From contig CAYMRP010000004.1 of the NCBI GenBank assembly GCA_964392925.1, forward strand, positions 71,184 to 135,183: a stretch of 64,000 nt of DNA, read 5' to 3'. This DNA comes from an uncultured Gammaproteobacteria bacterium (lineage in GTDB: Bacteria; Patescibacteriota; Microgenomatia; Daviesbacterales; UBA10151). Under the pieces are notes generated by a model. The model worked only from the letters and a program-made list of their open reading frames with translations. It did no database searches and was not told the DNA's origin. The position numbers and the translations under genes are program-made. Within the stretch, counting starts at the first letter, position 1. Each line of letters opens with the position of its first letter. Positions 9,965 to 29,905 of the stretch are shown here, piece after piece.

Positions 9965-10639
9965 ATGATACAAACTGCCCTAATTTCAGTAATGCTTCTT
10001 TCAAACGTCGCCTTTACCCAGGCTGAATTTCCTACCACAGCCTCCGCCCAGTTGAAAACTGAGGCTAGCCAGGCTCAAACTATCCTAGGCTCAAGATCGA
10101 TGTCTTTAAACATGAGATATGGCTACGACGTGCCTGAGAACGTTTATAAAGACAATATTTTACTTAATTTAGCCTATCTCTCAGGCACAGTTAAATCTAA
10201 AAACGACATCAATTGGGACGTTTTAAAACAGCCTTCATCTACGAAATTCACTTTAAAACCAGGTGAAAGATTTGCTTATCACGATTTAATCGATCCTCAA
10301 TATCAAGATAATGTTGTTGTAACTGCCCATACTAACTTTGGAGCTGGCGATGGTTATAAATTCGAAGGTGGACTATATGGAATGGGTGTTTGTCACTTAG
10401 CTTCTTTAATCCATTGGGCTGCGCTTGATGCTGGACTAGAATCAATTGCTCCAAGCAACCATGACTTTTATGCTATACCTGAAATCCCTAAACAATATGG
10501 AGTAGCAATTTACGCAAGCCCTGATGCAGTTTCTTCATCTGTAAGACAAAATCTTTATATTAAAAACACTCTGGATTCAGAAATAACAATTAAATTTGAT
10601 TTCGACGGAGTAAATCTAATAGTTAGCGTTATTAAGTAA
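9965..10639 (+). CDS. Secreted VanW-like protein
   Basis: Has a signal peptide plus PGERFAY, GYKFEGG, GMGVCHLASLIHWAALDAGLE and a late H block. These parallel the VanW-domain signature (PGE.FS...GY...GGGVCQ.ST). Confidence 0.6.
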   Translation: MIQTALISVMLLSNVAFTQAEFPTTASAQLKTEASQAQTILGSRSMSLNMRYGYDVPENVYKDNILLNLAYLSGTVKSKNDINWDVLKQPSSTKFTLKPGERFAYHDLIDPQYQDNVVVTAHTNFGAGDGYKFEGGLYGMGVCHLASLIHWAALDAGLESIAPSNHDFYAIPEIPKQYGVAIYASPDAVSSSVRQNLYIKNTLDSEITIKFDFDGVNLIVSVIK

Positions 10640-10641
10640 GT

Positions 10642-11343
10642 TTAGTGAACTCTTACCCTTGTCCCAGGATTATCTACAGATGCTCTTAAAGCATTAACCC
10701 CAGGCGGTAAAACAGGTCCAGTCCAATCGAATAACTCAGCAACTTCAGCCAATGGTGAATTAACACATCCATGACTCATTGGGTTTCCAAAATTACTGTG
10801 CCAATACGCCCCATGTATCGCATAACCCTGATAAAAGAACATATTATGAGGCACATTCGGTAAGTAATAATAAGTTCCTAATTCTTTTGAGCCCCCTTTC
10901 ATCGCCTGAGAACGGGTCTTATACCAAATTCTAAATTCCCCCTTTGGTGTTGCAGCCCATTTACCAGAAGATATTAAAAACTCTTTAACAATTGTATCGC
11001 CTTCATAAGCCCTTAACTTCTGCTCATCAAGCGAAACATCAATCCATTTTTCCTCACCTGCTGCATTTGTTATTCCGAGTACACTCACATCTTGAATTTG
11101 ATTATTGGATAAAATTTGAGCCAGAGATGTCTTTGGGTAATCTATGATCTCATTATTGTAAATTGCCAAATTAGCACCCTCATCAAAACCTCCATCAGAT
11201 AAATTATTTACATCACAGCACGACAATGTTGTATCTCCTGAAATTCCAAGTCTATAAGCAGCCTCACGGCGAATTGGTGTGTAATTAAAAGCGCCCACAA
11301 TCAGGGCTATAAAGACTAGTATGGGCAGAAAACGTATCATCAC
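10642..11343 (-). CDS. L,D-transpeptidase (YkuD domain)
   Basis: Contains the catalytic block HGAYWHSNFGNPMSHGCVN (H...SHGC) and an N-terminal anchor. Confidence 0.85.
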   Translation of the reverse strand: MMIRFLPILVFIALIVGAFNYTPIRREAAYRLGISGDTTLSCCDVNNLSDGGFDEGANLAIYNNEIIDYPKTSLAQILSNNQIQDVSVLGITNAAGEEKWIDVSLDEQKLRAYEGDTIVKEFLISSGKWAATPKGEFRIWYKTRSQAMKGGSKELGTYYYLPNVPHNMFFYQGYAIHGAYWHSNFGNPMSHGCVNSPLAEVAELFDWTGPVLPPGVNALRASVDNPGTRVRVH

Positions 11344-11417
11344 TTCAGCGAAGAAAATAAAGCCTCAACGCTTAATATATTGTCCGGTTTGCTAGTATAA
11401 TAAGTCAAGACTTCAAT

Positions 11418-12503
11418 ATGAGAATCCACTGGTTTTTTAAAGTTACAGGTTTTTTTGCGGCGATTTTTATAATCTGGCTGCTGTTTTATTATGCTCTCCC
11501 GGAAATATTACCTGCGCAAAGAGTCGAGTCATCAGAAGTCTATGGACTAATCTTCTCTGATCAAATTTGGGGAGGAAATATTAAAATTGTTGGAGATGTT
11601 TATACTCTCACAAATAGTAAGGTAACGATTCTTCCGGGAACTAAAATAAAAGTTGCCATTAATAGTGATAAATCAAATATGGATCTTCTTCCTTGGCATA
11701 GAAAGGAAGGAGTTAACACCGGAGATTTTTATAAAGGTGTTAAAACTGGTGAGCCTTTCTGGAATGAAAGCCGGAAAATTCAAATCCATCTCAATACAGT
11801 CGAAATGATTGGAGAGCCCAGCAATACTATCGAAATAACCTCAGAATCAGAAGACCCTAGTCCATATGACTATAATATTTTAAGTATAAGATCAGGTAAG
11901 ATTACGCACGCTTTATTTTCTAACTACCGCCGTTTTGAAACTAATGGCGATTTAGAAGTAATGAACTCTACCTTTCGTAATACAGGTGAATGCGCACTCT
12001 GTATAACTGGTGGAACACCCAGAGTCTACAACAATACTTTTGAAAATAGCTTACGTGAGTCAATTTGGATTAAAAAAGCCAGCCCCATAATCGATAATAA
12101 TTTATTCATTAACCTAACCGGAGATGGAATAAAAATAGATCCTCAAAAAATTGCCGCACCTCATATCGTAAATAATGTTTTTGAAATGCCTCAACGAGGA
12201 GCAATTGATATAATAGCAGGAAGTCAACTTGGGGAAATATTAATTGCCAGAAATATTTTCTCCGGAAATTCGCAGATTAAAATCGCTTGTGATGCACAAG
12301 TCAAAATAAGAGATAATGCTATCTTTGGGCTGATTAGTTTTACCAATGGTTGTACTGGTGGATTCACCTTTGGGTCCAATTTTTGGGGAACTATTGACCC
12401 GCGAATTATCCTCAGTGAAAAAATTCTCAGTAAATATGAAAGATTCCGCATTGAAATACCTAACGTTCTATTTATGGCTCCTAAAGGAGCGGGGAGGAAA
12501 TAG
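11418..12503 (+). CDS. Anchored right-handed parallel beta-helix (PbH1 / NosD-like) repeat protein
   Basis: Shows repeating N-N-x-F/I-x-N turns (VYNNTFEN, IDNNLFIN, VNNVFEM, ARNIFSGN, RDNAIFG). Confidence 0.6.
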   Translation: MRIHWFFKVTGFFAAIFIIWLLFYYALPEILPAQRVESSEVYGLIFSDQIWGGNIKIVGDVYTLTNSKVTILPGTKIKVAINSDKSNMDLLPWHRKEGVNTGDFYKGVKTGEPFWNESRKIQIHLNTVEMIGEPSNTIEITSESEDPSPYDYNILSIRSGKITHALFSNYRRFETNGDLEVMNSTFRNTGECALCITGGTPRVYNNTFENSLRESIWIKKASPIIDNNLFINLTGDGIKIDPQKIAAPHIVNNVFEMPQRGAIDIIAGSQLGEILIARNIFSGNSQIKIACDAQVKIRDNAIFGLISFTNGCTGGFTFGSNFWGTIDPRIILSEKILSKYERFRIEIPNVLFMAPKGAGRK

Positions 12504-12506
12504 TAA

Positions 12507-13439
12507 CTGAAAAATTTATTAGCATTCTTAGGAATATTACTTCTTAGTAGCTTTGTTTTGTTTAAATCTGGTGAATTCTTTACTAAATCCAGCTTAACGT
12601 CACCCGTGCTTGGAGTAGCGAAGGAAAGAGTTTCTGAAAACGTCTGGGCTCCTCATATAGAGGATATCACTTTAAATCAGTTTATTGATGCCCCAGAAAT
12701 AACCGCCATCTCAGCATTATTTGTTGACACTACAACCGGTCAGGTTTTATATGAGAAAAATTCTCAGCAGGAATTGTCTATTGCTTCGTTGACTAAAATA
12801 ATGACAACTATAATTGCTCTGGAGAATAAAACCCCCGAAGATCTTTTTACAGTGTCTGAACATGCCTCCAGCATGGAGCCCGATAAAATGTATTTGATAG
12901 CTGGAGAAAAAATCAGCCTAAGCAACTTACTAGATGGAATATTCCTGGTCTCTGCCAACGATGCAGCGGAAGTTATCGCTGAGAACACCTCTGGGAGAAG
13001 AGAGGAGTTTATTAATTTAATGAATTCTAAAGCCAGGCAACTAGGTATGAATAATACTTTTTTCCTCAATCCCTCCGGTCTTGAAGAAGATTTTGCTAAA
13101 CAGTATTCAACAGCCCTTGATGTCGCTGTTATGTCTAGATATTTAATTACCAGGTGGCCTAATGTTGTTAATATTTCCTCGCAACCCCATGTTTATATCG
13201 AACGGACAGACTATCACCAAGATTATGATATGTATAGCGGTATTAATTTACTCACTACTTATCCGGGAGTTTTAGGATTAAAAACTGGCTATACTCCTGT
13301 TGCCGGCTTAACTCTAGTAACTTTAGCTAGGCGTGGCGATAAAGAAGTCTTAGGCGTTTTACTTGGTGCTGTTAACCGTCGGGACGATGCTAAGGCCTTA
13401 CTAGACTATTCCTTCAAAAAACTCGGTTTAGAGATATAA
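12507..13439 (+). CDS. D-alanyl-D-alanine carboxypeptidase (PBP5/S11 family)
   Basis: Contains SxxK (SIASLTKIM), SxN (VSAND) and KTG (LKTGYT). A signal-anchor (KNLLAFLGILLLSSFVLF) lies in-frame upstream of the first canonical start (TTG 12558). The 5' end is therefore provisionally placed at CTG 12507. Confidence 0.8.
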   Translation: MKNLLAFLGILLLSSFVLFKSGEFFTKSSLTSPVLGVAKERVSENVWAPHIEDITLNQFIDAPEITAISALFVDTTTGQVLYEKNSQQELSIASLTKIMTTIIALENKTPEDLFTVSEHASSMEPDKMYLIAGEKISLSNLLDGIFLVSANDAAEVIAENTSGRREEFINLMNSKARQLGMNNTFFLNPSGLEEDFAKQYSTALDVAVMSRYLITRWPNVVNISSQPHVYIERTDYHQDYDMYSGINLLTTYPGVLGLKTGYTPVAGLTLVTLARRGDKEVLGVLLGAVNRRDDAKALLDYSFKKLGLEI

Positions 13440-13528: not shown

Positions 13529-16500
13529 ATGAATCTGGGAATAGATGTTATGGGTTTAAACATGAGCAATTTAGATATCATCATCCCGGTTAAAAACGAA
13601 GAAGGCAATATTCTTGCCTTAGTCCAGAGAATCAGTCAAGCAATGAAGCTTGGAAATCTTTCCTATAAAATGATTTTCATCGATGATAATTCAAGCGATA
13701 AAACTGTCTCCTCTCTAGAAATACTAAAAAAAATCTATCCAATTGAAATACATCCAAAAAAGGGCAAGCCAGGCAAAGCTTATTCAATAATTGAGGGAGT
13801 CGATTACGCAACCAGCGATAACATCGCCATGATCGATGCCGATCTTCAATACCCCCCAGAAGTTTTGCCTCAAATGCTCAAACAATTAGCAGATTCAGGG
13901 GTAGTAATCGCCCGCCGGAAAACAGCCCAGGGCTCAAAGTTGCGAAGATTCGTCAGTAAAGCTTTTACCAATGTATTTGGCGGCCTTCTTCACAACCTAA
14001 ACGTTGATGTTCAATCAGGACTCAAAGTCTTCAAAAAAGAAGTAATTGAAAAAATAGACCCCAAGAAAATAACACCTTGGACTTTAGACCTCTCACTGGT
14101 TTTAGTTGCCCGGGATTTAGGATTAGGCATTTCAGAAGTTGATATTGAATTTGATAAAAGAAAAAATGGTAATTCAAAAGTAAGTTTAGTCAGAACTTCA
14201 ATTGAAATCGGCAAAAACGCTTTAAAGCTTAAGTTCTTTAGAAAAAGACAATTCACTATTAAACCAACTAAAGAAAACTCCATGATCGGTGGAGGCATAA
14301 TACTTAAGGGTAAAAAATATATTACTCACACCACCTTAGAAGATAAGCATCTCGCTCTCAAAACATTTAGCACCACCCAAAAGTTCATTATTGGCTCACT
14401 AGTTACCGCTGCCATAGTTGGTTTAATCACAAATCCTCTTGCTGCAATTTTAACTATAGTCGCGATTCTCAGCGTAATTTATTTTATTGACGTTGTTTTT
14501 AATATTAGTGTTGTTCTGAAGAGTCTTCATTTTCCGCCAGAAATTAAAATACCCTCGGAAGACATCGAGGCTGTAGATGATAGTAAATTACCAACCTATA
14601 CAATTCTCTGTCCTCTCTATCGAGAAGCGGATGTATTGCCGCAGTTTTTGGAGTCTATCGAAAAACTTGATTGGCCTAAAAGTAAGCTTGATGTCATACT
14701 TTTACTTGAGGAAGATGATAAAGAGACTGTCGCTGAAATTAGTAAAAAAAGACTTCCATATTACGTCAGGGCTTTAATTACTCCCGACTCTCAGCCTAAA
14801 ACAAAGCCCAAGGCCTGTAACTACGGTTTAGCCCATGCTAACGGTGAATACCTAGTTATTTATGATGCCGAAGATCGACCTGATCCAGACCAATTAAAAA
14901 AGGCCTATCTCGGCTTTAAAAATTCCGGATCTAAAATTGTCTGCTTGCAGGCAAAATTGAACTATTTTAATCCTCACCAAAATTTACTCACCCGTTTCTT
15001 TACCGCTGAATATTCACTCTGGTTCGATGTTATGCTACCGGGACTCCAGTCTATTAATACTGTGATCCCTCTGGGCGGTACCTCAAATCACTTCAGAACC
15101 GCCACCTTAAGAGATCTCGAAGGATGGGATCCATTCAACGTCACAGAGGATTGTGACTTAGGAGTGAGAATCTTTAAAAAAGGCTGGTCAACAGCAATTA
15201 TCGATTCAATAACTCTAGAAGAAGCCAATTCAAATTGGGCTAATTGGATCAGGCAGCGTTCAAGATGGCTCAAAGGTTATATGCAAACCTACCTGGTTCA
15301 TATGCGTAATCCTTTCAGTTTTATTGCTCAAAACGGCTGGCACGCTTTTGTTTTTCAACTAATTATTGGTGCCCGTATCTCGTTCATGCTTATTAACCCG
15401 ATTCTTTGGTTAACGACTCTTTCCTATTTTGCTCTCTACGCCTATGTTGGTCCGGCAATTGAAGAGATTTTTCCTTCAGCAATATTCTATATGGCGGTCT
15501 TTTCTCTTTTAGTCGGTAACTTCTCATATATCTATAACTACATGATAGGTGCCTTAAAGCGCGAGCACTATTCGCTTATTAAGTTCATTTTCTTGATCCC
15601 AATCTATTGGCTGGTGGCATCCTACGCAGCTGGAGTGGCTGCTTATCAATTAATTGTTAAACCTCACTATTGGGAAAAAACTGTCCACGGTCTCCATATC
15701 AAAAAAATGACTATAGAGAGTATAAAAGAAGAAATACTGCCCACGCTTACTGCCGATTTAATTAAGCCCTCTGACGGAAGAATGTCATTCTACAAGAAGC
15801 TATCCTTACCAAAAGCTTTAATACCAAGTGCAATTTACACCTTAGCTACTTTTATCTCAGGGATTCTTAACCTAGGATTTAATGTCTTCTTAGGTAGAGT
15901 AATCAGCTTTGAGAACTTAGCGACCTTAAGTTTAGTAAGCAGTTTTTTGTATTTTTCTTCAGTGCCTCAGAACTCCTTACTAAGCACTATCACCCATAAA
16001 GTTGGTTATCTAGAAGGTAAAGGTAAGTTAACATCAGCACTTCATTTTTTTAAACAGGCAACAAATAGATCGCTTTTAATATCTTTTATTGCCTCGGCTG
16101 CATGGCTTTTTTCAATTCCCTTTCTAATGGATTATTTCCAATCAGATGATATATTTCCTTTTCTTCTCTTTACCCCTGTTTGGACACTTGGTACGGTTTT
16201 CGCTCTGATGAAGGGGTTTTTAGTAGGGAGATTAATGCTTGCCAGAGTAGGGTTTATTCTTTTTGCTGAAACTGTATTTAAATTTAGCATAGCGCTCATT
16301 TTTATATATTTTAATCTTTCCCACTGGGCATTTGTTGCTCTACCAGGATCGATTGTGCTCAGCGCAATTCTGATAATTCTTATCTCGGGAAAACTACTTA
16401 AAGTGCCAGAGAATGCTCCACAGTTAAAAAATGAATTTAGCTTTCCTCTTAAGTTCTATTCTGCTTCTGCCCTATCAATACTTGCACCCATTGCCTTTTT

Positions 16501-18274
16501 AAGTATGGATGTCCTCTTGGCTAAGCACTACTTAGCTCCCGTTGAAGCGGGTAAGTACGCCTTGCTTTCTGTCATTGGAAAAATCATTTTCTTTATGGGT
16601 GCATTAGCTAATCAGCTAGTGCTGCCTCTGGTTAGTCGAAATGAGGGCGCGGGTCGAAGTTCAGAAAAGTTTCTTGGCTGGGTATTTATTGGAACATTCT
16701 TAGTCACAAGTCTGGGCTTCATTTTCTGGGGTTTACTTGGAGGCTATACAGTACCTCTAGTTTTCGGAGAAAAAGCCAATGAAATAACACAATTCTTAGA
16801 AATATTCACTTTTACAATGATATGTTTCTCACTCTCAAGAGTATTAGTGTCTTATTTTCTGGCCAAAAAAGTTTACACCTTCCCTATTGTTTCATCTCTA
16901 ATTGTTATTCTCCAATTCGCTTTAATTTATTTTAATCATTCCGACTTAGGGTCAATAGTTTTTGATATGTTCTTGGTCGGAGTAATTGATTTACTTGCTA
17001 TGGCTATTCTTTATTTATTCTTGCCGTATGTAAAAATATTTGAAAATAATGTTAGCGATTTATTTGGATTATTTACCCGATCACTTCCTTTTAGTAAAGC
17101 TGAAGCTAACAAAAAAGTCCGAATTCTCATATTCAATTGGAGAGATATCAGCCATGTCTGGTCTGGTGGAGCAGAGAACTATATTCATGAATTAGCAAAA
17201 CTTTGGGTGGAACAGGGTTATCAGGTAACTATTTTTTCAGGTAACGATAACTTAAGTAAACGGTATGAAGTTTTAGACGGTGTACAAATAGTTAGAAGGG
17301 GTGGGTTCTATACAGTCTACTTCTGGGCAGTTTTATATTATATTTTCCGTTTCCGCGGTCTATATGATTTAGTTATAGATTCTGAAAACGGCATCCCTTT
17401 CTTTACGCCTCTATACGTTGGAAAAGCAAAGCTTTTATTAATTCATCATATCCACCAAGAAGTTTTCAGAAATCACCTTTCTTTGCCACTGGCAATTTTT
17501 GCATCATTCCTTGAAGGCAAACTTATGCCATTTATTTATAAAAATCAAAAAGTTATAACAGTTTCTGAATCTTCAAAGCAGGAAATCTTAAAACTGGGCA
17601 AGGATGTATTTGGTGCAATTGAAATTGTTAATCCTGGAATTCACACTCATAAATTCCTCACCCTAAAGAAAACAACAAATCCATCATTCTTATATCTCGG
17701 CCGACTGCAGCCTTACAAGAATATTGAAGTAGCAATTAAAGCATTCGCACAAGTTATTTCTAAATACCCTGATGCCACTTTAACAATTGCCGGTTTTGGT
17801 GAAAGTCTGATATCTCTTAAAAAACTAGCCGGCCAATTATCAATAGAAAAATCAGTTATTTTTACTGGCCGTGTCACTGATGAGAGGAAGTACGAGCTGT
17901 TATCAGAAAGCTGGGTTATGCTTCAGCCCTCAATGATTGAAGGCTGGGGGATCACTGTTATAGAAGCAAATGCGTCCGGAACTCCTGTAATCGCCTCAAA
18001 TGTTAACGGTCTTCGTGATTCAGTTGTCGATGGTAGAACCGGCATGTTAGTTAGACCAAAAGATGTTCAGATGTTTGCCCGGGTCATGACAGATCTTATT
18101 GAAAATAAAGAATTTAGAGATTACTTATCAGCTCAGGGAATTAAGTGGTCACAAAATTTTTCTTGGAAAAAACAGGCTGAAAAATATACTCACATTATAG
18201 AAGAGACCCTCTCTGATCATACCAAGAAAGGTATAAATTTAACAAAATCATGGAGTTTAAATTTTAGAAAGTAA
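13529..18274 (+). CDS. 1581-aa four-module glycan-assembly fusion: GtrB/DPM1-like GT2, processive synthase-like GT2 with TM bundle, MOP/Wzx-like flippase, and GT4
   Basis: It is a single uninterrupted ORF. Module signatures are listed in the four sub-features below. The start could instead be the ATG at 13562 (MSNLDIIIP). Confidence 0.85.
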   Translation: MNLGIDVMGLNMSNLDIIIPVKNEEGNILALVQRISQAMKLGNLSYKMIFIDDNSSDKTVSSLEILKKIYPIEIHPKKGKPGKAYSIIEGVDYATSDNIAMIDADLQYPPEVLPQMLKQLADSGVVIARRKTAQGSKLRRFVSKAFTNVFGGLLHNLNVDVQSGLKVFKKEVIEKIDPKKITPWTLDLSLVLVARDLGLGISEVDIEFDKRKNGNSKVSLVRTSIEIGKNALKLKFFRKRQFTIKPTKENSMIGGGIILKGKKYITHTTLEDKHLALKTFSTTQKFIIGSLVTAAIVGLITNPLAAILTIVAILSVIYFIDVVFNISVVLKSLHFPPEIKIPSEDIEAVDDSKLPTYTILCPLYREADVLPQFLESIEKLDWPKSKLDVILLLEEDDKETVAEISKKRLPYYVRALITPDSQPKTKPKACNYGLAHANGEYLVIYDAEDRPDPDQLKKAYLGFKNSGSKIVCLQAKLNYFNPHQNLLTRFFTAEYSLWFDVMLPGLQSINTVIPLGGTSNHFRTATLRDLEGWDPFNVTEDCDLGVRIFKKGWSTAIIDSITLEEANSNWANWIRQRSRWLKGYMQTYLVHMRNPFSFIAQNGWHAFVFQLIIGARISFMLINPILWLTTLSYFALYAYVGPAIEEIFPSAIFYMAVFSLLVGNFSYIYNYMIGALKREHYSLIKFIFLIPIYWLVASYAAGVAAYQLIVKPHYWEKTVHGLHIKKMTIESIKEEILPTLTADLIKPSDGRMSFYKKLSLPKALIPSAIYTLATFISGILNLGFNVFLGRVISFENLATLSLVSSFLYFSSVPQNSLLSTITHKVGYLEGKGKLTSALHFFKQATNRSLLISFIASAAWLFSIPFLMDYFQSDDIFPFLLFTPVWTLGTVFALMKGFLVGRLMLARVGFILFAETVFKFSIALIFIYFNLSHWAFVALPGSIVLSAILIILISGKLLKVPENAPQLKNEFSFPLKFYSASALSILAPIAFLSMDVLLAKHYLAPVEAGKYALLSVIGKIIFFMGALANQLVLPLVSRNEGAGRSSEKFLGWVFIGTFLVTSLGFIFWGLLGGYTVPLVFGEKANEITQFLEIFTFTMICFSLSRVLVSYFLAKKVYTFPIVSSLIVILQFALIYFNHSDLGSIVFDMFLVGVIDLLAMAILYLFLPYVKIFENNVSDLFGLFTRSLPFSKAEANKKVRILIFNWRDISHVWSGGAENYIHELAKLWVEQGYQVTIFSGNDNLSKRYEVLDGVQIVRRGGFYTVYFWAVLYYIFRFRGLYDLVIDSENGIPFFTPLYVGKAKLLLIHHIHQEVFRNHLSLPLAIFASFLEGKLMPFIYKNQKVITVSESSKQEILKLGKDVFGAIEIVNPGIHTHKFLTLKKTTNPSFLYLGRLQPYKNIEVAIKAFAQVISKYPDATLTIAGFGESLISLKKLAGQLSIEKSVIFTGRVTDERKYELLSESWVMLQPSMIEGWGITVIEANASGTPVIASNVNGLRDSVVDGRTGMLVRPKDVQMFARVMTDLIENKEFRDYLSAQGIKWSQNFSWKKQAEKYTHIIEETLSDHTKKGINLTKSWSLNFRK
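13562..14240 (+). other. Module 1: polyprenyl-phosphate glycosyltransferase-like GT2 (GtrB/ArnC/DPM1 type)
   Basis: Contains IIIPVKNEE, FIDDNSSDKT and IDADLQYPPE, the DADLQ.PP signature of this subfamily. Confidence 0.7.
14591..15670 (+). other. Module 2: synthase-type GT2 (D, DxD, TED, QxxRW) followed by about 4 TM helices
   Basis: Contains YTILCPLYRE, YDAEDRPDPDQL, VTEDCDLG and QRSRWLKG, followed by hydrophobic helices. Confidence 0.7.
15818..17040 (+). other. Module 3: polytopic MOP/Wzx-like polysaccharide-transporter module
   Basis: About 12 hydrophobic spans. The block MDVLLAKHYLAPVEAGKYALL parallels VDILLVKHYFSDFEAGTYALL in the separate flippase at 18840. Confidence 0.6.
17114..18210 (+). 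other. Module 4: GT4 (glycosyl transferase group 1)
   Basis: Contains WSGGAENY and the C-terminal EGWGITVIEANASGTPVIAS (E-x7-E region). Confidence 0.75.
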
Positions 18275-18276: not shown

Positions 18277-18840
18277 ATGGGAAAAACGATATCAATCATC
18301 TTACGAGTCTTTAAAAAAACACAAGCCAAAATATATACCAGATTTTGGAAACTATTTCTAAAATCCTTAGGGAAATACAGTGTTCTATATCCTGGGAGCA
18401 CCTTTGCCGGGGCATGTAATATCCAAATAGGTCATCACGTATTTATTCATCAGGGAGCACATTTATATACTGGCGGCAGCAAAATTACCATTGGGAACTA
18501 CGTACTCATTGGTAGAAACTGCTCAATTATCGCCGCCAACAGAGACTATGCGAATTGGACTCGGCCTATTTATTTTGGTACAGAATATGTGAAAAAACCT
18601 GTAGTTATAAAAGATGATGTTTGGATTGGTGAACGGGTAATTATTACCGCTGGTGTGACCGTTGGGCGAGGAGTTGTAATAGGTGCGGGTTCAATCGTAA
18701 CAAAAGATGTACCTGATTTCGCTATTGTTGCTGGTGTTCCTGCCAAGTTAATTAAATATCGATTTGATAAAAAAACTATTCAGCGAGCGATGCGGATAGA
18801 CTTGTCCAAATTCAAAGATATCAAAAAGGAGAAAAAATAA
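18277..18840 (+). CDS. Hexapeptide-repeat (LbH) O-acetyltransferase, WbbJ/maltose-acetyltransferase-like
   Basis: Shows the left-handed beta-helix repeats IGERVIITAGVTVGRGVVIGAGSIVTKDVP. Confidence 0.8.
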   Translation: MGKTISIILRVFKKTQAKIYTRFWKLFLKSLGKYSVLYPGSTFAGACNIQIGHHVFIHQGAHLYTGGSKITIGNYVLIGRNCSIIAANRDYANWTRPIYFGTEYVKKPVVIKDDVWIGERVIITAGVTVGRGVVIGAGSIVTKDVPDFAIVAGVPAKLIKYRFDKKTIQRAMRIDLSKFKDIKKEKK

Positions 18841-20198
18841 TGTCCGGAATAATTACTAGAATTTCTACTTTGGCTTCCAAAAACAAACTTATAACTACAG
18901 CTGGATTATTTGTGGCAGCCTCGATGTTGGCAAATATATTCAATTGGCTTTTAAGTATCCTAGCCGGCCGGGTTTTAGATACAGATGAATTTGCAGTCTA
19001 CGCTGTTTTTGTAAGCATATTAGGCATTCTGTCTGTTCCCTCAAACGCTTTAGCAACAACAATCAGCAGATACTATGCTTATTATTCGGGAAAAGAGAGC
19101 AGTTCAGATATTAAAGCTTTGATTAACTATTATAAAAAAGTAGCGCTGATTTTAGGAGTTCTTGGTGTCCTTATAGTCTATTTCACAAACGACTATATCA
19201 GAGCTTTTTTAAAGCTACCATCAGATAGCATGGTCGTTGGGTTTGCACCCGTTGCTTTCTTTCTTTTTACGGCGGCTTACTTCAGAGGAATTTTAAAAGG
19301 AAAACTAAAATTCGGCATAGTTGGACTGATGATGATAGTAGAAACATTTACTAAGCTGATACTTTTATTCTCCGGATACATGTTAAACCTTCCTGTTCTC
19401 GTAATAGCCATCATTTCCTTACCACTTTCTTGGTCGCTTGCATCTCTGATCGGGTTTTTAGCTACTTTTGAAAACGATGATAAGACTAGAATCACAAAGA
19501 AAACAGGAACCTTAGAATTTTCAAAATTAGATAGTCATTTTTTTATGACAAACGCTTTTTTTGCTAGTGTTGGTATGATGCTAATGAATAGTGTCGATAT
19601 TTTGCTAGTAAAACATTATTTTTCCGATTTTGAAGCTGGAACTTATGCTCTATTAAGCCTTTTCGGGAAAATTCTTTACTTTGGAGGTGGAAGCTTCATA
19701 GAATTATTTGTTCCACTCACCGCTAAGTCACATGCGAAAAATTCTAACAGTAGAAATCAATTTTTTAAACTTCTCGTATTGGTATCATCAGTAGCGATCC
19801 CCACACTAATTCTATTTCTTTCATTCCCAAACTTCACAACATACCTATTCTTAAAGGATAAAGGCTACCTAGTAATTCCGTATTTGGCACCTTATCTTAT
19901 TGCAACAACATTCCTGCTTTATACCAATTGTTTTAATGCATATAACACGGCTAAAAAACATTTCATCTCGACATACCTGATAACTGCGATGGCATTAGTC
20001 CAGGGAGCTTTGATTATGATATGGCACAAATCGCTTACTGATATTGTAAACATTGTTCTTTTCACTCAAGTTGTACTTTTTGTACTAGTTCTGTTTTATG
20101 AATTTTTTATATCTCCAAAACACTCTGAAGAAAAATCAACTTCGTCACTATGGACAAAATGGTCTCCAATTTGGGAAAGGACTAACAACAATGTCTAA
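18840..20198 (+). CDS. MOP/Wzx-family polysaccharide flippase
   Basis: About 12 TM spans. The start ATG overlaps the preceding TAA (TAATG). Confidence 0.65.
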   Translation: MSGIITRISTLASKNKLITTAGLFVAASMLANIFNWLLSILAGRVLDTDEFAVYAVFVSILGILSVPSNALATTISRYYAYYSGKESSSDIKALINYYKKVALILGVLGVLIVYFTNDYIRAFLKLPSDSMVVGFAPVAFFLFTAAYFRGILKGKLKFGIVGLMMIVETFTKLILLFSGYMLNLPVLVIAIISLPLSWSLASLIGFLATFENDDKTRITKKTGTLEFSKLDSHFFMTNAFFASVGMMLMNSVDILLVKHYFSDFEAGTYALLSLFGKILYFGGGSFIELFVPLTAKSHAKNSNSRNQFFKLLVLVSSVAIPTLILFLSFPNFTTYLFLKDKGYLVIPYLAPYLIATTFLLYTNCFNAYNTAKKHFISTYLITAMALVQGALIMIWHKSLTDIVNIVLFTQVVLFVLVLFYEFFISPKHSEEKSTSSLWTKWSPIWERTNNNV

Positions 20199-21195
20199 AA
20201 CTTTATTAGTACAACAGCAACAGCTCCACTTTTTCTTGGTGATGCTTATGTCGTTATTCAGAAAAAAACAAACAGCCATCTCGCCTCTCCCAGCTTTAGT
20301 AAATGGCTTCGCTCTAGAGAGGGAGCTAAATTCAGGTGAGTTAATAAAGCCTCACAGAATAGGAATATACAAAAATGATCGCGGACAAAAAGGTGTAGTT
20401 AAATGGTGGAGTGGAAACAAAAAAACATTTGCAGCTATATCATTAGAGAATGAACTTTCAATGGCCAAATTATTAGAGAAATTAAACCATCGGACAATTA
20501 AAAATCAAAAACCAAATTTGACTCAAATTGGAAGTGCACATGTTATCACAAGTAGAGTAAATGAAAAAACAGTTTTTATAATGTCTGAATTTCATGAGGG
20601 AAAACTTCTTAGAGAAGTAGCAAAGGCGATCCAGATTAAAGAGTATAAACGGGCACTAAACTATTTAAGTAGTCTATCTGGCAATTTAACCCAAATTGAA
20701 ATTGACGCGCTTCCCAAGAGAACATATATTGATTACCTATTGCTTTACCCAGCTTTGTTAAGTGTCTCTATTCTAAGACAACCGAGATATTTTTGGACAT
20801 TTATAAAAGGCCTGCCCCCAGTACTTTTCTCACTTACAAAAATTAGAAAACATCCTTTAACCATAGTGCATCGAGATCTTCACACAATGAATATTATCTA
20901 TTCTCCATCTCGCACAACCATCATCGATCTACAGCGTGCTGTTCTAACTTACGGGTTATATGAGCTGGTAACAACTTTAGCAGTTGAATGGGACAACAAG
21001 GAATTACGTCAGGCGATTCTAGATTATATTTACTCATCATATTCGAATTCTTTAACTATCTTTAGAGGACTAATGATTTATTTTGCAACTCATGCTCTGA
21101 CTGCCAATAACTTGCCGGAGTATTATCTTAGCCGCTACAAAGCAATGCTTAACTTCGCGGTCTATAAATATTCCAACTATTATTTAAAAACATGA
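20191..21195 (+). CDS. Protein-kinase-like-fold phosphotransferase (APH / LPS-kinase-like)
   Basis: Contains IVHRDLHTMNIIY (HRDLHxxN catalytic loop) followed by IIDLQRA. The start is set at the ATG at 20191, which overlaps the flippase stop by 8 nt; the track start at 20098 lies inside the flippase gene. Confidence 0.55.
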   Translation: MSKTLLVQQQQLHFFLVMLMSLFRKKQTAISPLPALVNGFALERELNSGELIKPHRIGIYKNDRGQKGVVKWWSGNKKTFAAISLENELSMAKLLEKLNHRTIKNQKPNLTQIGSAHVITSRVNEKTVFIMSEFHEGKLLREVAKAIQIKEYKRALNYLSSLSGNLTQIEIDALPKRTYIDYLLLYPALLSVSILRQPRYFWTFIKGLPPVLFSLTKIRKHPLTIVHRDLHTMNIIYSPSRTTIIDLQRAVLTYGLYELVTTLAVEWDNKELRQAILDYIYSSYSNSLTIFRGLMIYFATHALTANNLPEYYLSRYKAMLNFAVYKYSNYYLKT

Positions 21196-24074: not shown

Positions 24075-24964
24075 AAAAGAAATTAAAAATATCAATCGCT
24101 ATACCTACTTACGAAGCCGGAGAAAGTCTTGTTGTCACACTCCGCTCTATCTACAATCAAACTTTTTATTCGGAAATAGATAAAATTTATGTGGCTATAG
24201 ATGGTAATAAGATAAAAAGCAAAATCATGAATAAAATAAAAAATCCAAAGCTGAGTCTACTTCACTATAAAAGAAGAGAAGGCCAAGCCCAAAGAATTAA
24301 TAATTTATTCAAAAAATCGAGTTCTGACATTTTGGTATTAACCAACGATGATATCTACTTAACCAATACCTTAGTCGAGGAAATTGTCCGCACTTATAAT
24401 GGTGACCTGATATTAGGAAATGTCCTAGGTATCAAGCCTCAGACATTCATTGAGAGACTCGTCTTGGTAGGAGCAAATATTAATAAAAGAGTCGCAGAAT
24501 CCTGGAATTCAGGCGACAATTATCTTTCCTGCAACGGCAGACTGATCATACTTTCTAAAAAATTATATAAAAGAATAGAGCTGCCGAAAACAATTTGGAA
24601 TAGTGATGCTTATATTTATTTCTATGCAAAAAAACTTAAATCTGAAGTTAATATCGGCAAAGAACTAAAAGCATATTTCAGAGCTCCTAGCAATCTTGAA
24701 GAGCATATTAAGCAGAGTGATAAGTTTCAAATGTCTCGGGAGGAAAATATGTCTTATTTTAAAGAGGATATATCTAAACAATACGACATACCTAAAGCTC
24801 TAAAATTTAAATCCCTCATTCTTGAATTCCTATTAAACCCAGTGATTACTTTTTGCTACGTACTTATTTATATCTATACAAGAACCCATAGAAAATACTA
24901 TAATATACAACATAAGGATTTTTGGGAAACTGATAAAACAACTAAGCAATTGAAAATATCATGA
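24071..24964 (+). CDS. GT2 glycosyltransferase
   Basis: Contains ISIAIPTYEAGESL, AIDGN and TNDDI. The start overlaps the upstream stop (ATGA). Confidence 0.7.
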   Translation: MKKKLKISIAIPTYEAGESLVVTLRSIYNQTFYSEIDKIYVAIDGNKIKSKIMNKIKNPKLSLLHYKRREGQAQRINNLFKKSSSDILVLTNDDIYLTNTLVEEIVRTYNGDLILGNVLGIKPQTFIERLVLVGANINKRVAESWNSGDNYLSCNGRLIILSKKLYKRIELPKTIWNSDAYIYFYAKKLKSEVNIGKELKAYFRAPSNLEEHIKQSDKFQMSREENMSYFKEDISKQYDIPKALKFKSLILEFLLNPVITFCYVLIYIYTRTHRKYYNIQHKDFWETDKTTKQLKIS

Positions 24965-26511
24965 AAAAAATAATTACTTCAATACTATTAATAATCTTCA
25001 GTTTCGTAATTCTAACTCTTTCTATAAGGGGCATAGCTGGTAATCCTAGTGATGCTACCATTAACGAACCGTACTGGAAAGATAATGGTCCTTTAGAGCT
25101 CTCACCTGAAAGAGGTAAATTTGCTCTGACATATTCCTTCGTTGAGGATAATTCTGTTCATTTCTCGGTTCCAATAGCAAAATTCTCGACACCCGACTTA
25201 GGTTATAGTAAAGGTAATTATGTCTCACTTTTTGCACCAGGCGTAGCCTATATAACAATACCAGGATATATTATAGGTAAGGAATTTGGCTCTTCGCAAG
25301 TTGGCACTTATGCTGTAATAGCATTATTCGCGATAATGAACGCAGCCTTAATAAATTTAATCCTCCTAAGGCTTGGTGTAAGGAGTATTTTATCTGCTAT
25401 AAGTAGTATCATTTTTCTATTCGCGACACCGGCTTTCGCATATGCCGTATCTCTATATCAGCATCATATATCCACATTTATAATACTTCTAAGTGTATAT
25501 CTGCTGCAAAGATTTAAAGGAATTTGGCCACTGGTAATTATATGGTTTATCTTAGCCATATCTTTAGCAGTAGATAATCCAAATCTTTTTATGGTTTTCC
25601 CGATCGGGATATATGCATTAGGGCGAGTAGTTTACGCAAAAATTGATCAGAACAAGGTTAAGGTAGGAGTGAAGACATTAGCAGTTCTGACTTTAGTCAC
25701 TGCTTTAGTCCCTCTTTTACTTTTCGGGTGGTTCAACAAAATATCTTATGGCGACGCTATGAGACTTGGAGGTACTGTGGCATCGGTTAAAGAAATAGAT
25801 GAACAAGGTAAGCCAGCTGCTCCAAAAAATACAGGAACAACTAATGTTGCCCAGTTTATCAATCCTGATCAGCAAAAAAAGTCAGCTCTCAGATTCTTTA
25901 AGACCAGAAATATATTAAACGGCTTTTATATTCATTTTATTAGTCCTGACAGAGGCATTATATATTTTACACCGGTCATACTATTGGGTTTCATTGGAAT
26001 GTTTTATTTTTACAGGAAAGATTCGGGATTAACGTCTCTTCTTATTGCAATCATGGGAACAAATATCCTGCTGTATTCTATGTGGGGTGATGCATGGGGA
26101 GGATGGGCGTTTGGTTCGAGATATTTAGTACCTTCTTATGCAATACTCGCCATTTTCCTTGGTGTCGCCCTAAACAGGTTCCATCGGAATATTATATTTA
26201 TACTTGTGTTCTTATCTCTTTTTGTATATTCGGCAGCTATAAATACCGTAGGTGCTATTACTTCCAATAGAAATCCTCCTCAGGTTGAAGTTTTGGGTCT
26301 GGAGCAGCTAACAGGCAAACAAGAAAAATACACTTATGAAAGAAATTTTGACATGCTAGGCATTAATCAATCTAAATCTTTTGTATTTAATACTACAGTT
26401 AACAAATATTTCACTGCATGGGAATACTACTATTTCCTGACGGGGCTAATTATTCTCTCAGTGGCATTGCCATTAATTACACTTAACGCACTAGACTGGA
26501 GAAGAAAATGA
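24961..26511 (+). CDS. Polytopic membrane protein, GT-C-like (ArnT/PMT/YfhO-type) candidate
   Basis: More than 10 TM spans and a first-loop acidic pair (VEDN). The size and topology resemble lipid-linked-sugar transferases. The call rests on topology only. Confidence 0.4.
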   Translation: MKKIITSILLIIFSFVILTLSIRGIAGNPSDATINEPYWKDNGPLELSPERGKFALTYSFVEDNSVHFSVPIAKFSTPDLGYSKGNYVSLFAPGVAYITIPGYIIGKEFGSSQVGTYAVIALFAIMNAALINLILLRLGVRSILSAISSIIFLFATPAFAYAVSLYQHHISTFIILLSVYLLQRFKGIWPLVIIWFILAISLAVDNPNLFMVFPIGIYALGRVVYAKIDQNKVKVGVKTLAVLTLVTALVPLLLFGWFNKISYGDAMRLGGTVASVKEIDEQGKPAAPKNTGTTNVAQFINPDQQKKSALRFFKTRNILNGFYIHFISPDRGIIYFTPVILLGFIGMFYFYRKDSGLTSLLIAIMGTNILLYSMWGDAWGGWAFGSRYLVPSYAILAIFLGVALNRFHRNIIFILVFLSLFVYSAAINTVGAITSNRNPPQVEVLGLEQLTGKQEKYTYERNFDMLGINQSKSFVFNTTVNKYFTAWEYYYFLTGLIILSVALPLITLNALDWRRK

Positions 26512-28166
26512 TAAAAATAAATAAGTTAGCTGAAATAGAAATAGAGCTTAATGTCTCTTTACTAGACAAAATTAAAGATTTTTTCTCTAAGTATGGACTC
26601 TACTTCATAATTTTAATACTTTCAGGCATTTCCGTAGGCGGATTTCTATACTTTCTTGAAAACGGATTAGGGCTCGCATACAACGATGCCAGATCCCATT
26701 TAAATATTGGCCGAAGAGTAGTAGAAGGGTTAAAGCCAGGTTTCGCCCAAATTGGTAGTGTCTGGTTACCTCTACCTCACGTTCTAATGATTCCTACAAT
26801 CTGGAATGATTTTATGTGGCACACAGGTTTATCCGGTGCAATTGTCTCGATGTCCTCCTTTATTGGAACAGGTGTATTAGTCTATAAGTTCCTTCAAAAA
26901 CTAGGAGCAGGATTAATGGGTAGATGGATGGGAGTTCTTGTGCTGGTAGCAAACATTAATATTCTATATTTGCAATCTACCGCAATGACTGAACTATTAT
27001 TACTTTTCACAATGACCGCCGCAGCCTACGACCTAATGATCTGGCACCAATCAAGCAGAATTATTAATCTGGTTAAAGCCGCATTTTGGATAATGTTATC
27101 AACTCTCGTCAGATATGATGGTTGGTTCCTATTTTTCGTATCAGTTATTCTTATAGTCATTAATCTTATGCGGGTGGGTAGTTTTAAAATAAAGGATCTC
27201 CCTGCTAAATATTTCAAAATAGAGGGAGTCGTCATTGCTTTCTGTACGTTAGCAGGTCTTGGAGTTTTTCTATGGTTACTATGGAACCTATTAATTTTTA
27301 AAGATCCGTTTTTCTTTGCCTTTGGCCCATACTCAGCTCATGCCCAGCAACAGCAATTAGAAAGTGCGGGGGAGTTAATTACCAAACATGATTGGTTTCT
27401 TTCAGCTAAGTTTTATACATATGCTCTAGCCTATAATTCCGGAGCTTTCTCAGCACTTCTTGGGATATTTGGGTTAGTAGCTATTTGGTTCGATAAGAAG
27501 CTATTAACACCGGTAAAATTTGCAGTGTTTGCTTTAGTTGCACCACTTTTATTCAATATATTAGCATTATACCTTGGGCATTCAGTTCTATTTATCCAAG
27601 GACTTTCTGGTGATGTCTGGTTCAATGTCCGATACGGCATTATGATGATGCCATCAATAGCAATCTTTATTGGTTTTCTTATCGATAGGGTTAAGAATCT
27701 TAGAGCAGTCCTTATCGGGCTTTTACTACTTACGATTTTCTTCCAGTTCCAAAACTTTGATGCAGTTACTATTGATGATGCCAGAGTTGGATCTTCTCAG
27801 AAAAATGTCAGCGAAGTATCAGATTGGCTATCTCAAAATGCTAAAGATAGGGATGGGTTCATTTTAATCTCAGCAGCCTCACACGACGCTATTATTTTTT
27901 CATCTGGATTACCAATGAAAAAATTTATCCATGAAGGTACCGGCAGATATTGGGAATCCGCAACAACAAATCCTGAAAGATGGGCAAGATGGATTATTGC
28001 CAGAACTCATGACAATAACGATTCTACGTGGAGAGCTGTATCGCAAACTCCAGATATTAATAACTATATTCTTGTTAAGTCTTACCCGTTTGCAGATATC
28101 TACGAACTAAAGCCAGAGTTCCTCCCTAACCTCAATACAAAACCTATCTTAGGCAAGCAAAAGTAG
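26508..28166 (+). CDS. Polytopic membrane protein, GT-C-like (ArnT/PMT family) candidate with a C-terminal soluble domain
   Basis: Has the first-loop block AYNDARSHLNIGRRV, about 11 TM spans and a ~150-aa periplasmic-type tail. The call rests on topology and motif only. Confidence 0.4.
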   Translation: MIKINKLAEIEIELNVSLLDKIKDFFSKYGLYFIILILSGISVGGFLYFLENGLGLAYNDARSHLNIGRRVVEGLKPGFAQIGSVWLPLPHVLMIPTIWNDFMWHTGLSGAIVSMSSFIGTGVLVYKFLQKLGAGLMGRWMGVLVLVANINILYLQSTAMTELLLLFTMTAAAYDLMIWHQSSRIINLVKAAFWIMLSTLVRYDGWFLFFVSVILIVINLMRVGSFKIKDLPAKYFKIEGVVIAFCTLAGLGVFLWLLWNLLIFKDPFFFAFGPYSAHAQQQQLESAGELITKHDWFLSAKFYTYALAYNSGAFSALLGIFGLVAIWFDKKLLTPVKFAVFALVAPLLFNILALYLGHSVLFIQGLSGDVWFNVRYGIMMMPSIAIFIGFLIDRVKNLRAVLIGLLLLTIFFQFQNFDAVTIDDARVGSSQKNVSEVSDWLSQNAKDRDGFILISAASHDAIIFSSGLPMKKFIHEGTGRYWESATTNPERWARWIIARTHDNNDSTWRAVSQTPDINNYILVKSYPFADIYELKPEFLPNLNTKPILGKQK

Positions 28167-29266: not shown

Positions 29267-29905
29267 ATGAAGATAGTGTTCGTTATTTTTCTCGTTATTT
29301 TCAGCCTATTAATTAATTCAGGTCAAGCTCTCGCGTACGAAATACCTACCTTTACCTCCTGTGTTAACCCTCAAGGAGATCTCAAAGCTAACTATGAAAC
29401 TGGTACTCACGGAATTGCTGGCCGTCCAGGATTATTTGAAGGAAAAGACACCGTCTATGCAGTCGCGAGTAACGCCATTACTCAATGCTTTTGCCCAACC
29501 GATGGTAATGGTGTTCAGACAAATTTCTGGAAAATACCCGCTTTGACTCAATCTAAAATTAGTGTTCTTGAGGCTCAGGGTTGGATTTATATTCCCAACG
29601 GAGCATTGTGGGGATTAGAAAACGCTCCGTACCTAGCAAAAAATTCAGACTATAGCTGTAAATCATCAGGTGGAAGTAACGATAGTTCAGGTAGTTCTGG
29701 AGGTAGTAATGGATCTGGATCATCAGGCAGTAATTCTGGAGCTGGGGGCTCCTCATCTCTTTCAGTATCGGGCGGAGTAGGGCAGGTTTTAGGTCTCGCC
29801 TCAACCGGAAATACAATTTTTGTCTTAGGCACTGCTCTAACTTCAGGAATATCCCTGCTTCTGGGCCTTATTCTAAAAAGAAGAACAACAAATTTATCCA
29901 AGTAA
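29267..29905 (+). CDS. Sortase-anchored surface protein (signal peptide, Cys-containing domain, Ser/Gly stalk, LASTG sorting signal)
   Basis: LASTG lies at 29795-29809. It is followed by a hydrophobic span (NTIFVLGTALTSGISLLLGLIL) and a KRR tail, the classic cell-wall sorting signal layout. Confidence 0.75.
   Translation: MKIVFVIFLVIFSLLINSGQALAYEIPTFTSCVNPQGDLKANYETGTHGIAGRPGLFEGKDTVYAVASNAITQCFCPTDGNGVQTNFWKIPALTQSKISVLEAQGWIYIPNGALWGLENAPYLAKNSDYSCKSSGGSNDSSGSSGGSNGSGSSGSNSGAGGSSSLSVSGGVGQVLGLASTGNTIFVLGTALTSGISLLLGLILKRRTTNLSK

Follow-up and report, generated by a model that had tools for sequence, protein, structure and literature searches.

A conserved four-module glycosyltransferase and transporter protein in a predicted cell-envelope glycan operon of Microgenomates

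Can one membrane protein combine several normally separate steps of glycan assembly, and what pathway would such a protein serve? This question is raised by a single open reading frame (ORF) in a window of 64,000 nucleotides (the whole stretch analysed here, from contig CAYMRP010000004.1 of assembly GCA_964392925.1, which is labelled as an uncultured Gammaproteobacteria bacterium and placed by GTDB in the Microgenomatia of the Patescibacteriota). The original prediction for this ORF described a fusion of four modules: a glycosyltransferase (GT) of family GT2 resembling GtrB and DPM1 (module 1), a synthase-type GT2 (module 2), a MOP/Wzx-like transporter (module 3) and a cytoplasmic GT4 (module 4). 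This four-module anatomy is almost certainly correct, and the protein belongs to a widespread family in Microgenomates/Patescibacteria and is not unique. On balance, we consider it probable that this conserved membrane protein with several enzyme modules belongs to an operon for a cell-envelope glycan of Microgenomates, and that a synthase-made glycan is decorated outside the membrane from lipid-linked sugars made and flipped by the same polypeptide chain.

Integrity and anatomy of the four-module protein

The ORF runs for 1581 codons without an internal stop, its base composition is even (GC 0.33-0.41 along its length), and every motif quoted in the original prediction lies where it had been placed, so that the claim of one uninterrupted four-module ORF is borne out. 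Three independent assemblies yield the 1581-residue protein, once as the exact sequence and twice in near-identical form (7 and 9 substitutions, no indels). In a search of 5.8 billion proteins with the whole protein, the best 120 hits (clusters at 90% identity) were examined; all were full length (1535-1607 aa, 48-73% identity, 97-100% query coverage) with the same Pfam set and, where the sources name them, came from Microgenomates, Levy-, Woese- and Gottesmanbacteria. An artefact, whether an assembly chimera or a stop masked by a frameshift, has a negligible probability in our judgement. Nothing pointing to one was found for the window ORF; module boundaries lie in different frames in the relatives L011, L013, L019 and L030, and could be sequencing errors in those metagenome-assembled genomes (MAGs). 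Against an artefact stand the agreement of the assemblies, the uniform composition and at least 120 diverged full-length homologues from different studies. Chance or an assembly chimera is excluded as the origin of the fusion.

Whether the architecture is already a common annotated family has a divided answer: it is common, but its full-length members are labelled 'glycosyltransferase' only. No curated family for the four-part architecture appeared in the Pfam or NCBIfam scans, and no published description of it or of its partners was found in the full-text literature searched, which leaves most subscription journals outside its coverage. The homologues begin at the third ATG of the window ORF (aa 12, nt 13562), and this codon may therefore be the true start. 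No Shine-Dalgarno sequence is evident 5' of 13529, and a scan for promoters and terminators, with fewer promoter-like sites than in shuffled sequences, yielded nothing informative.

Per-column identity to the query over the 120 homologues was highest in module 2 (~0.75-0.93), followed by module 4, module 1 and module 3, and only the linkers at aa 721-760 and 1181-1200 aligned poorly. Because the catalytic residues of all three GT modules were invariant or nearly so, all three enzymes appear to have been kept active. A hydropathy scan placed two transmembrane (TM) helices at aa 282-324, about four at aa 601-708 and about 12 at aa 764-1165. Pfam located the three GT regions as the original prediction had claimed, and left module 3 below its cut-off.

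Module 1 is a soluble GT-A domain that ends in a basic amphipathic segment. Pfam Glycos_transf_2 (PF00535) matched aa 17-145 (3.7e-34), and the IDADLQYPPE motif occupies aa 102-111 (nt 13832-13861). D103-x-D105, D160 and Q162 were invariant in 120 of 120 homologues, S163-G was present in at least 113, and D52-D53 was invariant or nearly so. All seven matches among PDB sequences, 5mlz and 5ekp among them, were to DPMS, GtrB (sll0501) or ArnC (4e-19 to 4e-11), the best being Pyrococcus DPMS (4e-19), Synechocystis GtrB (7e-16) and ArnC (3e-12). The assignment to the GtrB/DPM1 type is thereby upheld, the solved relatives being solely polyprenyl-phosphate sugar synthases. The top NCBIfam matches were PgfS, ArnC, AglJ (2.2e-12) and a Dol-P-hexose transferase, all far below their cut-offs (69 versus 500 bits). 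Module 1 is thus classed as an enzyme of the polyprenyl-phosphate sugar synthase type, with a predicted sugar transfer. The module lacks its own membrane anchor, PF04138 (GtrA_DPMS_TM) giving no match in the Pfam scan, and its Firmicutes counterparts do carry this domain; in the fusion, anchoring is supplied by module 2.

Module 2 consists of a conserved pre-TM segment, two TM helices (nt 14372-14500), a GT-A domain, about four further TM helices and a conserved KPHYWEKTxHG tail. The N-terminal helices belong to module 2 and not to module 1, because stand-alone orthologues of module 2 start at query aa ~250-280. Pfam Glyco_tranf_2_3 and Glyco_trans_2_3 matched aa 355-636 (2.8e-28 and 2.5e-23, respectively). 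The motifs are D397, D446AED449, T539ED541 and Q576RSRW580 (QRSRW at nt 15254-15268); D397, DAED, ED540-541 and QRSRW were found in all 120 homologues, and T539 in 118. The closest solved relative was BcsA (4e-10), and the nearest NCBIfam models were CelA (79 versus a cut-off of 699 bits), an XrtG-associated GT and PgaC (55 versus 422 bits). Both the synthase-type signature and the TM bundle that the original prediction had assigned to module 2 were thus recovered, and the module is BcsA-like.

Module 3 gave no above-threshold Pfam match by itself, MatE alone approaching the cut-off (22.8 versus 24.9 bits). Its assignment came from three other sources. BLASTP aligned it with the neighbouring stand-alone flippase over 408 residues (24% identity, E 9e-21), as expected of the paralogy that had been proposed; Polysacc_synt (PF01943) was matched by 6 of 13 orthologous module-3 sequences (best 1.4e-11); and an AlphaFold (AF2) model (pLDDT 89.4, pTM 0.87) showed 12 long helices with a terminal amphipathic helix (ExNxxDxFGLF) after them. 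Foldseek matched this model in the PDB to MATE1, MurJ, WzxE and NorM (probability 1.00, TM-scores 0.56-0.71). The claim of a ~12-TM MOP/Wzx-like module therefore held by paralogy, orthologues and fold, its own Pfam score remaining sub-threshold. In the model, module 3 has the MOP fold, with its 12 helices in two bundles of six, and it is predicted to flip lipid-linked sugars. R790, D994, K1018 and H1137 are conserved, and the block MDVLLAKHYL..EAGKYALL lies at aa 993-1013 (nt 16505-16567). We rejected the possibility that it is the cell's MurJ, since its TM helices number 12 instead of 14 and the family matched by its homologues is Polysacc_synt and not MurJ. A search of PDB sequences with the module-3 profile returned only TM segments of orexin receptors, which are spurious.

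Module 4 has a GT-B fold, with Glyco_transf_4 (PF13439) at aa 1213-1374 (5.5e-12) and Glycos_transf_1 (PF00534) at aa 1378-1540 (2.6e-42). G1391-R, K1397 and E1471-x7-E1479 are invariant, the last motif (EGWGITVIE) occupying aa 1471-1479 (nt 17939-17965), as the assignment to GT4 enzymes with an E-x7-E motif requires. NCBIfam matches included MshA, Agl16 (6e-25), EpsE and GlcNAc-phosphatidylglycerol synthase.

Fused, split and reshuffled arrangements

When GTDB was scanned with one genome for each species, 595 relatives of the whole protein were obtained, and arrangements were mapped at the best 80 of these loci by running tblastn with each module and assigning the matches to ORFs. With M1 to M4 standing for the four modules, a single ORF carried M1-M2-M3-M4 at eight complete loci and one cut by a contig end (with two more from an exact look-up), M2-M3-M4 at six complete loci and three cut or partial ones (Amesbacteria and others), M1-M2-M4 without a flippase module at four (L024, L026, L027 and L041), M2-M4 at two (L036 and L045), M1-M2-half-M3-M4 at two (L028 and L034, with a full MOP gene downstream), M1-M2 at ten (a separate M3-M4 gene follows in L030, L040, L044 and L051) and M2 alone at 35. 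Together with the at least 120 homologous clusters, the copies in GTDB species representatives contradict the rarity that had been expected of the four-part fusion.

At least eight interchangeable arrangements exist, and the four-part protein is one of these and not an obligatory unit. Module 2, the most conserved module and constant to every variant, is the evolutionary core. The order was always M1-M2-M3-M4 among the modules present, and gene splits coincided with module boundaries; in L030, L040, L044 and L051 the split falls in the linker between modules 2 and 3 (aa 726-760). The original prediction expected the fusion to hold its activities in fixed stoichiometry. As a purpose of the fusion this finds no support, since close relatives carry M2-M3-M4, M1-M2-M4, M1-M2-half-M3-M4 or M1-M2 with a separate M3-M4. 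The interchangeable arrangements therefore weaken fixed stoichiometry, while strongly supporting a shared function. At L028 (3218-3796) and L034 (12308-12886), only the C-terminal half of the MOP module (~6 TM helices) is retained between modules 2 and 4; the retained half may be degenerating, or may act as a structural spacer.

Relatives of module 3 were also sought by a HMMER scan with this module alone, in which 126 of 1.84 billion representatives scored E<1e-30. By size, these included stand-alone proteins (410-470 aa), many proteins in the range of ~720-860 aa, several between 1100 and 1420 aa and about ten with 1530-1611 aa, and examples had the Pfam architectures MOP-GT4, MOP-APH-GrpB, GT2-MOP, synthaseGT2-MOP-GT4, MOP-GT4-GT2 and MOP-GT4-FemAB-like. 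In the two-module MOP-GT4 and other MOP fusions from public metagenomes (P0124, P0142, P0172, P0178 and P0126), a member of the module-3 family (30-39% identity) precedes a GT4 of the same kind; unlike the window protein, they have no modules 1 and 2, and some carry an additional C-terminal GT2 or FemAB-like acyltransferase, or APH and GrpB domains instead.

These data also bear on whether the fusion is neutral, that is, whether operon modules that act independently were joined by intergenic loss in the streamlined genomes of the candidate phyla radiation (CPR), with no mechanistic coupling. The many fused and split alternatives at module boundaries among close relatives, the poorly conserved linkers and the operon genes, which overlap or abut throughout, are all compatible with such a history. 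Against it stand the constant order and the recurrence of the same partners across phyla, module 2 being fused in Chloroflexi to the downstream membrane protein MP2 (described below) and the two-module MOP-GT4 fusion being common. Recurring partners are the classic signature of functional association, and even a neutral fusion would report a shared pathway; we regard neutral fusion as highly unlikely.

Many MAG records marked 'TPA_asm' in which a Microgenomates-type operon lies bear titles that name uncultured Gammaproteobacteria, Bdellovibrionales or Pseudomonadales (L005, L007, L008, L010, L021-L024, L029, L030 and others), and these labels are probably wrong. Several MAG records with the full fusion are labelled as Gammaproteobacteria or Bdellovibrionales; their gene content resembles that of Patescibacteria, so that these labels too are doubtful.

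Partner proteins and a proposed pathway

Stand-alone orthologues of module 2 (45-58% identical over query aa ~250-725) were found in Chloroflexota, Actinobacteria (Nocardioides and Paraconexibacter), Bacillota and other Patescibacteria. The Clostridium drakei orthologue (L078, 11159-13399; 49% identity over 459 residues, E 3e-152) bears three N-terminal MshE-type motifs for binding cyclic di-GMP (c-di-GMP; NF053729, 1.9e-51), and its neighbours encode a BcsB-like protein, a GtrB-like GT2 with a GtrA_DPMS_TM domain and a PMT_2-like GT-C membrane protein. In Sporolactobacillus, the MshEN-GT2, GtrB-like and PMT_2-like genes are likewise adjacent, in an order that differs from that of C. drakei. 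MshEN-type motifs also occur on the module-2 orthologues at L079 (9083-11404, Sporolactobacillus) and L080 (8789-11341, Nocardioides). From their gene content, these loci of cultured Gram-positive bacteria look like a c-di-GMP-controlled exopolysaccharide system, of which no description was found in the literature searched. In the window protein, module 1 thus occupies the place of the regulatory domain of the Firmicutes orthologues. A possible MshEN remnant at aa 223-279 (a single BLAST segment, E 0.013, with a poor fit to the consensus) was judged too weak to claim.

Downstream of the window ORF, two genes encode polytopic membrane proteins, which we call GTC1 and MP2. MP2 is 56-63% identical across Microgenomates, and its homologue lies directly 3' of the module-2 orthologue at many loci of Patescibacteria, Saccharimonadales, Chloroflexi and Firmicutes; at the Chloroflexi loci L054 (9800-12787), L055, L057 and L059, it is joined with a module-2 type synthase in one ORF of ~1000 aa. 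Firmicutes and Saccharimonadales homologues of MP2 match Pfam PMT_2, one of them above the cut-off, and an acidic motif right after the first TM helix is common to MP2 and its homologues (YNDARSH / SDAMSR). By way of these homologues, MP2 is probably a PMT_2-like GT-C protein. The constant core across monoderm phyla is module 2 next to a PMT_2-like membrane protein.

GTC1 has at least 120 conserved homologues, labelled 'hypothetical', and its AlphaFold model (pLDDT 87.8, pTM 0.90) matched GT-C-fold proteins in all of the top 26 Foldseek hits in the PDB (ArnT best, with EmbA/B/C, PglB, ALG3/9, Pmt4, AftA, STT3 and others). NCBIfam LA_3751/LA_3752 matched it weakly and below the cut-off (2e-9). 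The GT-C fold of GTC1 is therefore confidently predicted from the model. At the 55 loci with enough flanking DNA, module 4 and GTC1 occurred together at 25, module 4 alone at 2, GTC1 alone at 2 and neither at 26; the corresponding counts were 20/2/7/26 for module 3 with module 4 and 27/4/16/8, a weak association, for module 1 with MP2.

In the pathway that we favour, all three GT domains would lie in the cytoplasm on an 18-helix membrane platform. The C-terminus of module 2 should be cytoplasmic, because the natural M1-M2-M4 variants attach the GT4 straight to its last helix; together with the even number of helices (12) in module 3, this argues for a cytoplasmic location of every GT domain. 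Module 2 would act as a processive BcsA-type synthase, polymerising a backbone from nucleotide sugar and threading it through its own TM bundle, while module 1, like GtrB, DPMS and ArnC, would load single sugars onto polyprenyl phosphate. Module 4 would make or extend a second lipid-linked glycan, and module 3 would flip the lipid-linked sugar or sugars to the outer leaflet. Characterised GT-C glycosyltransferases take lipid-linked donors outside the membrane, and GTC1 and MP2 would use the flipped donors there to decorate or extend the exported polymer. The data show what the modules are, that they are intact and conserved, which folds module 3 and GTC1 have in the models, and that the genes are linked across phyla; we infer the substrates, the lipid species flipped by module 3, the pairing of module 1 with MP2 and of modules 4 and 3 with GTC1, and the nature of the product.

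Several observations weigh against this pathway. No BcsB-like partner or c-di-GMP receptor domain was found among the window ORFs scanned, so the case for a processive module 2 rests on its motifs and on its orthology to BcsB-linked synthases, and the count of four TM helices after its GT domain comes from hydropathy only. No MOP gene lies within ~10 kb of the M3-less fusions L024, L026, L027 and L041, and some M2-M3-M4 genes (L014, L015 and L023) have no module 1 nearby; therefore, neither module is strictly required in cis. The PMT_2 matches behind the GT-C assignment of MP2 are weak ones in homologues, and hhalign found no significant similarity between the GTC1 profile and MP2 (probability 6.5%) and no usable similarity between that profile and the PMT_2-like protein of C. 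drakei (probability 0.4%); the GT-C status of MP2 thus rests on tblastn homology and the PMT_2 matches. The co-occurrence counts are uncorrected for phylogeny. Finally, the second flippase in the operon makes the substrates of module 3 ambiguous.

Could the locus instead encode a lipid-linked assembly line of the archaeal Agl or Wzx type, in which module 1 primes, modules 2 and 4 and the operon GTs extend, module 3 flips, and GTC1 or MP2 transfers or polymerises the product onto protein, peptidoglycan or another glycan, with module 2 being non-processive? The Agl system (AglJ, AglR and AglB) and ArnC/ArnT share a scheme with the pathway proposed for this locus: polyprenyl monophosphate is charged by an enzyme of the DPM1/GtrB type, the product is flipped, and the outer step falls to a GT-C enzyme; AglR is a Wzx-like protein. 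Unlike the window protein, they consist of separate components and contain no synthase-type GT2. The AglJ match of module 1 and the Agl16 match of module 4 agree with such a line, as do the resemblance of GTC1 to the oligosaccharyltransferases PglB and STT3 as well as to ArnT, the oligosaccharide units that are the usual cargo of Wzx-type MOP proteins, and the four more GTs, deacetylase and acyltransferase reported in the operon. Moreover, no phosphoglycosyl-transferase primer was seen in 9965-31389, where no ORF matched Bac_transf, Glycos_transf_4 (MraY/WecA) or Wzy_C, although such genes possibly lie elsewhere in the genome; this fits monophosphate priming by module 1. However, module 2 has the complete signature of a processive synthase and its own six-helix TM region, and its Firmicutes relatives have BcsB-like neighbours and c-di-GMP motifs, which are hallmarks of synthase-dependent export. 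Pairs of module 2 and MP2 also exist without modules 1, 3 or 4, and module 2 is therefore independent of a lipid-linked unit from the other modules. We consider an Agl/Wzx-type line unlikely.

The tight linkage of module 4 with GTC1 could alternatively reflect a lipoglycan pathway like that of mycobacterial LM/LAM, for which the PimA, Ppm1 and PimE pathway provides the comparison. A PimA-like GT4 would glycosylate a phospholipid or glycolipid, module 3 would flip it, and GT-C enzymes would elongate it with polyprenyl-phosphate sugar from the Ppm1-like module 1, leaving module 2 to an unrelated or accessory polymer. The matches of module 4 to MshA, GlcNAc-phosphatidylglycerol synthase and related GT4s directed at lipids or small molecules point in this direction, as do two GT-C-like proteins beside a Ppm1/DPMS-like module, and the PIG-L deacetylase and FemAB-like genes of one related operon. 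The acceptor specificity of a GT4 cannot be read from its sequence, however, and a lipoglycan pathway would leave unexplained module 2, the constant and most conserved core of every variant. It seems to us quite unlikely.

Each module of the decorated-polymer pathway that we prefer is of a known kind, and it is for the combination and its partners that no description was found in the literature searched. The closest functional parallel is the side chain of the streptococcal group A carbohydrate (GacI/GacJ/GacK/GacL), for which a GtrB-like synthase (GacI), the Wzx-family protein GacK as a proposed flippase, and GT-C transfer by GacL to the polymer outside have been described (10.1101/180810); three-component GtrB-flippase-GT-C glycosylation systems in general share this design (see also PMC11127046). 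The three roles would be filled here by module 1, module 3 and GTC1/MP2. In contrast to the Gac system, a single polypeptide holds synthase, flippase and two more GTs here, a GacJ-like helper is missing, and it is probably a synthase (module 2), and not an ABC-transporter pathway, that makes the acceptor polymer. There is likewise no GtrA-type flippase, GtrA_DPMS_TM having given no match in the scanned ORFs of 9965-31389; MOP-type transporters are present instead, as with GacK.

With BcsA-BcsB and other synthase-dependent systems (PgaC, NfrB and clostridial BcsA-like enzymes), module 2 has in common the D, DxD, TED and QxxRW motifs and the flanking TM bundle, and NfrB carries MshEN c-di-GMP motifs, as do the Firmicutes orthologues of module 2 beside BcsB-like genes. 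Unlike BcsA-BcsB, the window protein has neither PilZ nor MshEN and no BcsB partner, and a second catalytic GT2 takes the place of the regulatory region at its N-terminus.

A broader form of our proposal is speculative, and we hold it as possible but doubtful: an undescribed hybrid route may be widespread in monoderms (Patescibacteria, Chloroflexi, Firmicutes and Actinobacteria), in which the obligatory partner of a BcsA-like synthase is a PMT_2-like GT-C protein, which uses polyprenyl-phosphate sugar to modify the nascent chain, the MOP module of Microgenomates being a dedicated flippase for polyprenyl-monophosphate sugars tethered to its synthase. If so, the protein would provide a natural 'synthase-flippase' fusion for testing how such lipids cross membranes. 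How Dol-P-Man and Dol-P-Glc cross the membrane in eukaryotes is still an open question.

The fused, split and reshuffled forms serve as a natural Rosetta stone that links a synthase-type GT2, a polyprenyl-phosphate sugar synthase, a Wzx-type flippase with a GT4, and two unannotated membrane proteins. In the resulting linkage map, a PMT_2-like GT-C protein and a lipid-sugar synthase are recurrent companions of a BcsA-like synthase in monoderm phyla, and MOP, GT4 and GTC1 form a sub-module. These links suggest that CPR bacteria, whose envelopes have hardly been studied, unite synthase-dependent with lipid-carrier-dependent glycan chemistry in a single pathway. They also point to a related and apparently c-di-GMP-controlled pathway in cultivable Firmicutes (C. 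drakei, Paenibacillus and Sporolactobacillus), where genetics is possible, and GTC1 and MP2 are two candidate new GT-C families for annotation.

Genes around the four-module ORF

The features of the locus are listed in Table 1. The S11 carboxypeptidase gene, which is likewise the upstream neighbour in L003 and L004, gives the big ORF a cell-wall context. The region 9965-13439 to which it belongs is peptidoglycan-related, with a VanW-like gene, a YkuD L,D-transpeptidase gene on the minus strand and also a secreted protein with a weak, sub-threshold DUF1565 match. Downstream, the order GT2, deacetylase, GT4, GT2 is the same in L001-L004, and Woesebacteria and other contigs keep the order of kinase-like or acyltransferase genes, GT2, deacetylase, GT4, GT2 and two membrane proteins of ~520-550 aa that lack Pfam families.

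Table 1. Modules of the 1581-residue protein and neighbouring genes in the window.
Feature	Position (nt)	Strand	Basis or remark
S11 D-Ala-D-Ala carboxypeptidase	12558..13439	+	Domain scan; immediately upstream of the big ORF
Whole ORF, 1581 aa + stop, ATG start	13529..18274	+	~18 predicted TM helices (2 + 4 + 12)
Module 1, soluble GT-A domain of GtrB/DPMS/ArnC type, aa 1-245	13529..14263	+	Pfam, NCBIfam, PDB matches, motif conservation
Module 2, synthase-type GT2, aa 250-725	14276..15703	+	Pfam, NCBIfam, hydropathy, conservation, orthologues
Variable linker between modules 2 and 3, aa 726-760	15704..15808	+	Low identity, gaps
Module 3, predicted 12-TM MOP-superfamily transporter, Wzx/PST type, aa 761-1185	15809..17083	+	BLASTP, orthologue Pfam, AF2, Foldseek
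Module 4, cytoplasmic GT-B fold GT4, aa 1196-1560	17114..18208	+	Pfam PF13439 + PF00534, NCBIfam, conservation
Hexapeptide-repeat acyltransferase	18277..18840	+	Pfam Hexapep 3.2e-13; translationally coupled to the big ORF
Stand-alone Polysacc_synt (Wzx-type) flippase, module-3 paralogue	18840..20198	+	Pfam PF01943 1.5e-8
APH-like kinase domain protein	20098..21195	+	Domain scan
GT2	21192-22097	+	
Polysaccharide deacetylase	22090-22905	+	
GT4 (operon gene)	22902-24074	+	
GT2	24071-24964	+	
GTC1, 516-aa polytopic membrane protein, no Pfam family	24961..26511	+	AF2, Foldseek
MP2, 552-aa polytopic membrane protein	26508..28166	+	tblastn homology

The flippase and kinase ORFs overlap by ~100 nt, and the start of the kinase is therefore probably later than listed. 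In P0126 (955 aa), the module-3 MOP family is fused to APH and GrpB domains, an architecture that hints at a phosphorylated or nucleotidylated cargo. At 16749-19626 of L003/L004, a PIG-L family deacetylase stands in place of Polysacc_deac_1, together with two FemAB-like (Acetyltransf_6) genes; this suggests an amino sugar that loses its N-acetyl group before it is aminoacylated. At the end of the glycan operon, a 212-aa protein (29267-29905) with a signal peptide, a Ser/Gly-rich low-complexity stretch, 'LASTGN', a hydrophobic tail and KRR is followed directly by a sortase gene (29907-30485; Pfam Sortase, 4.6e-19), and by these features it looks like a sortase substrate.

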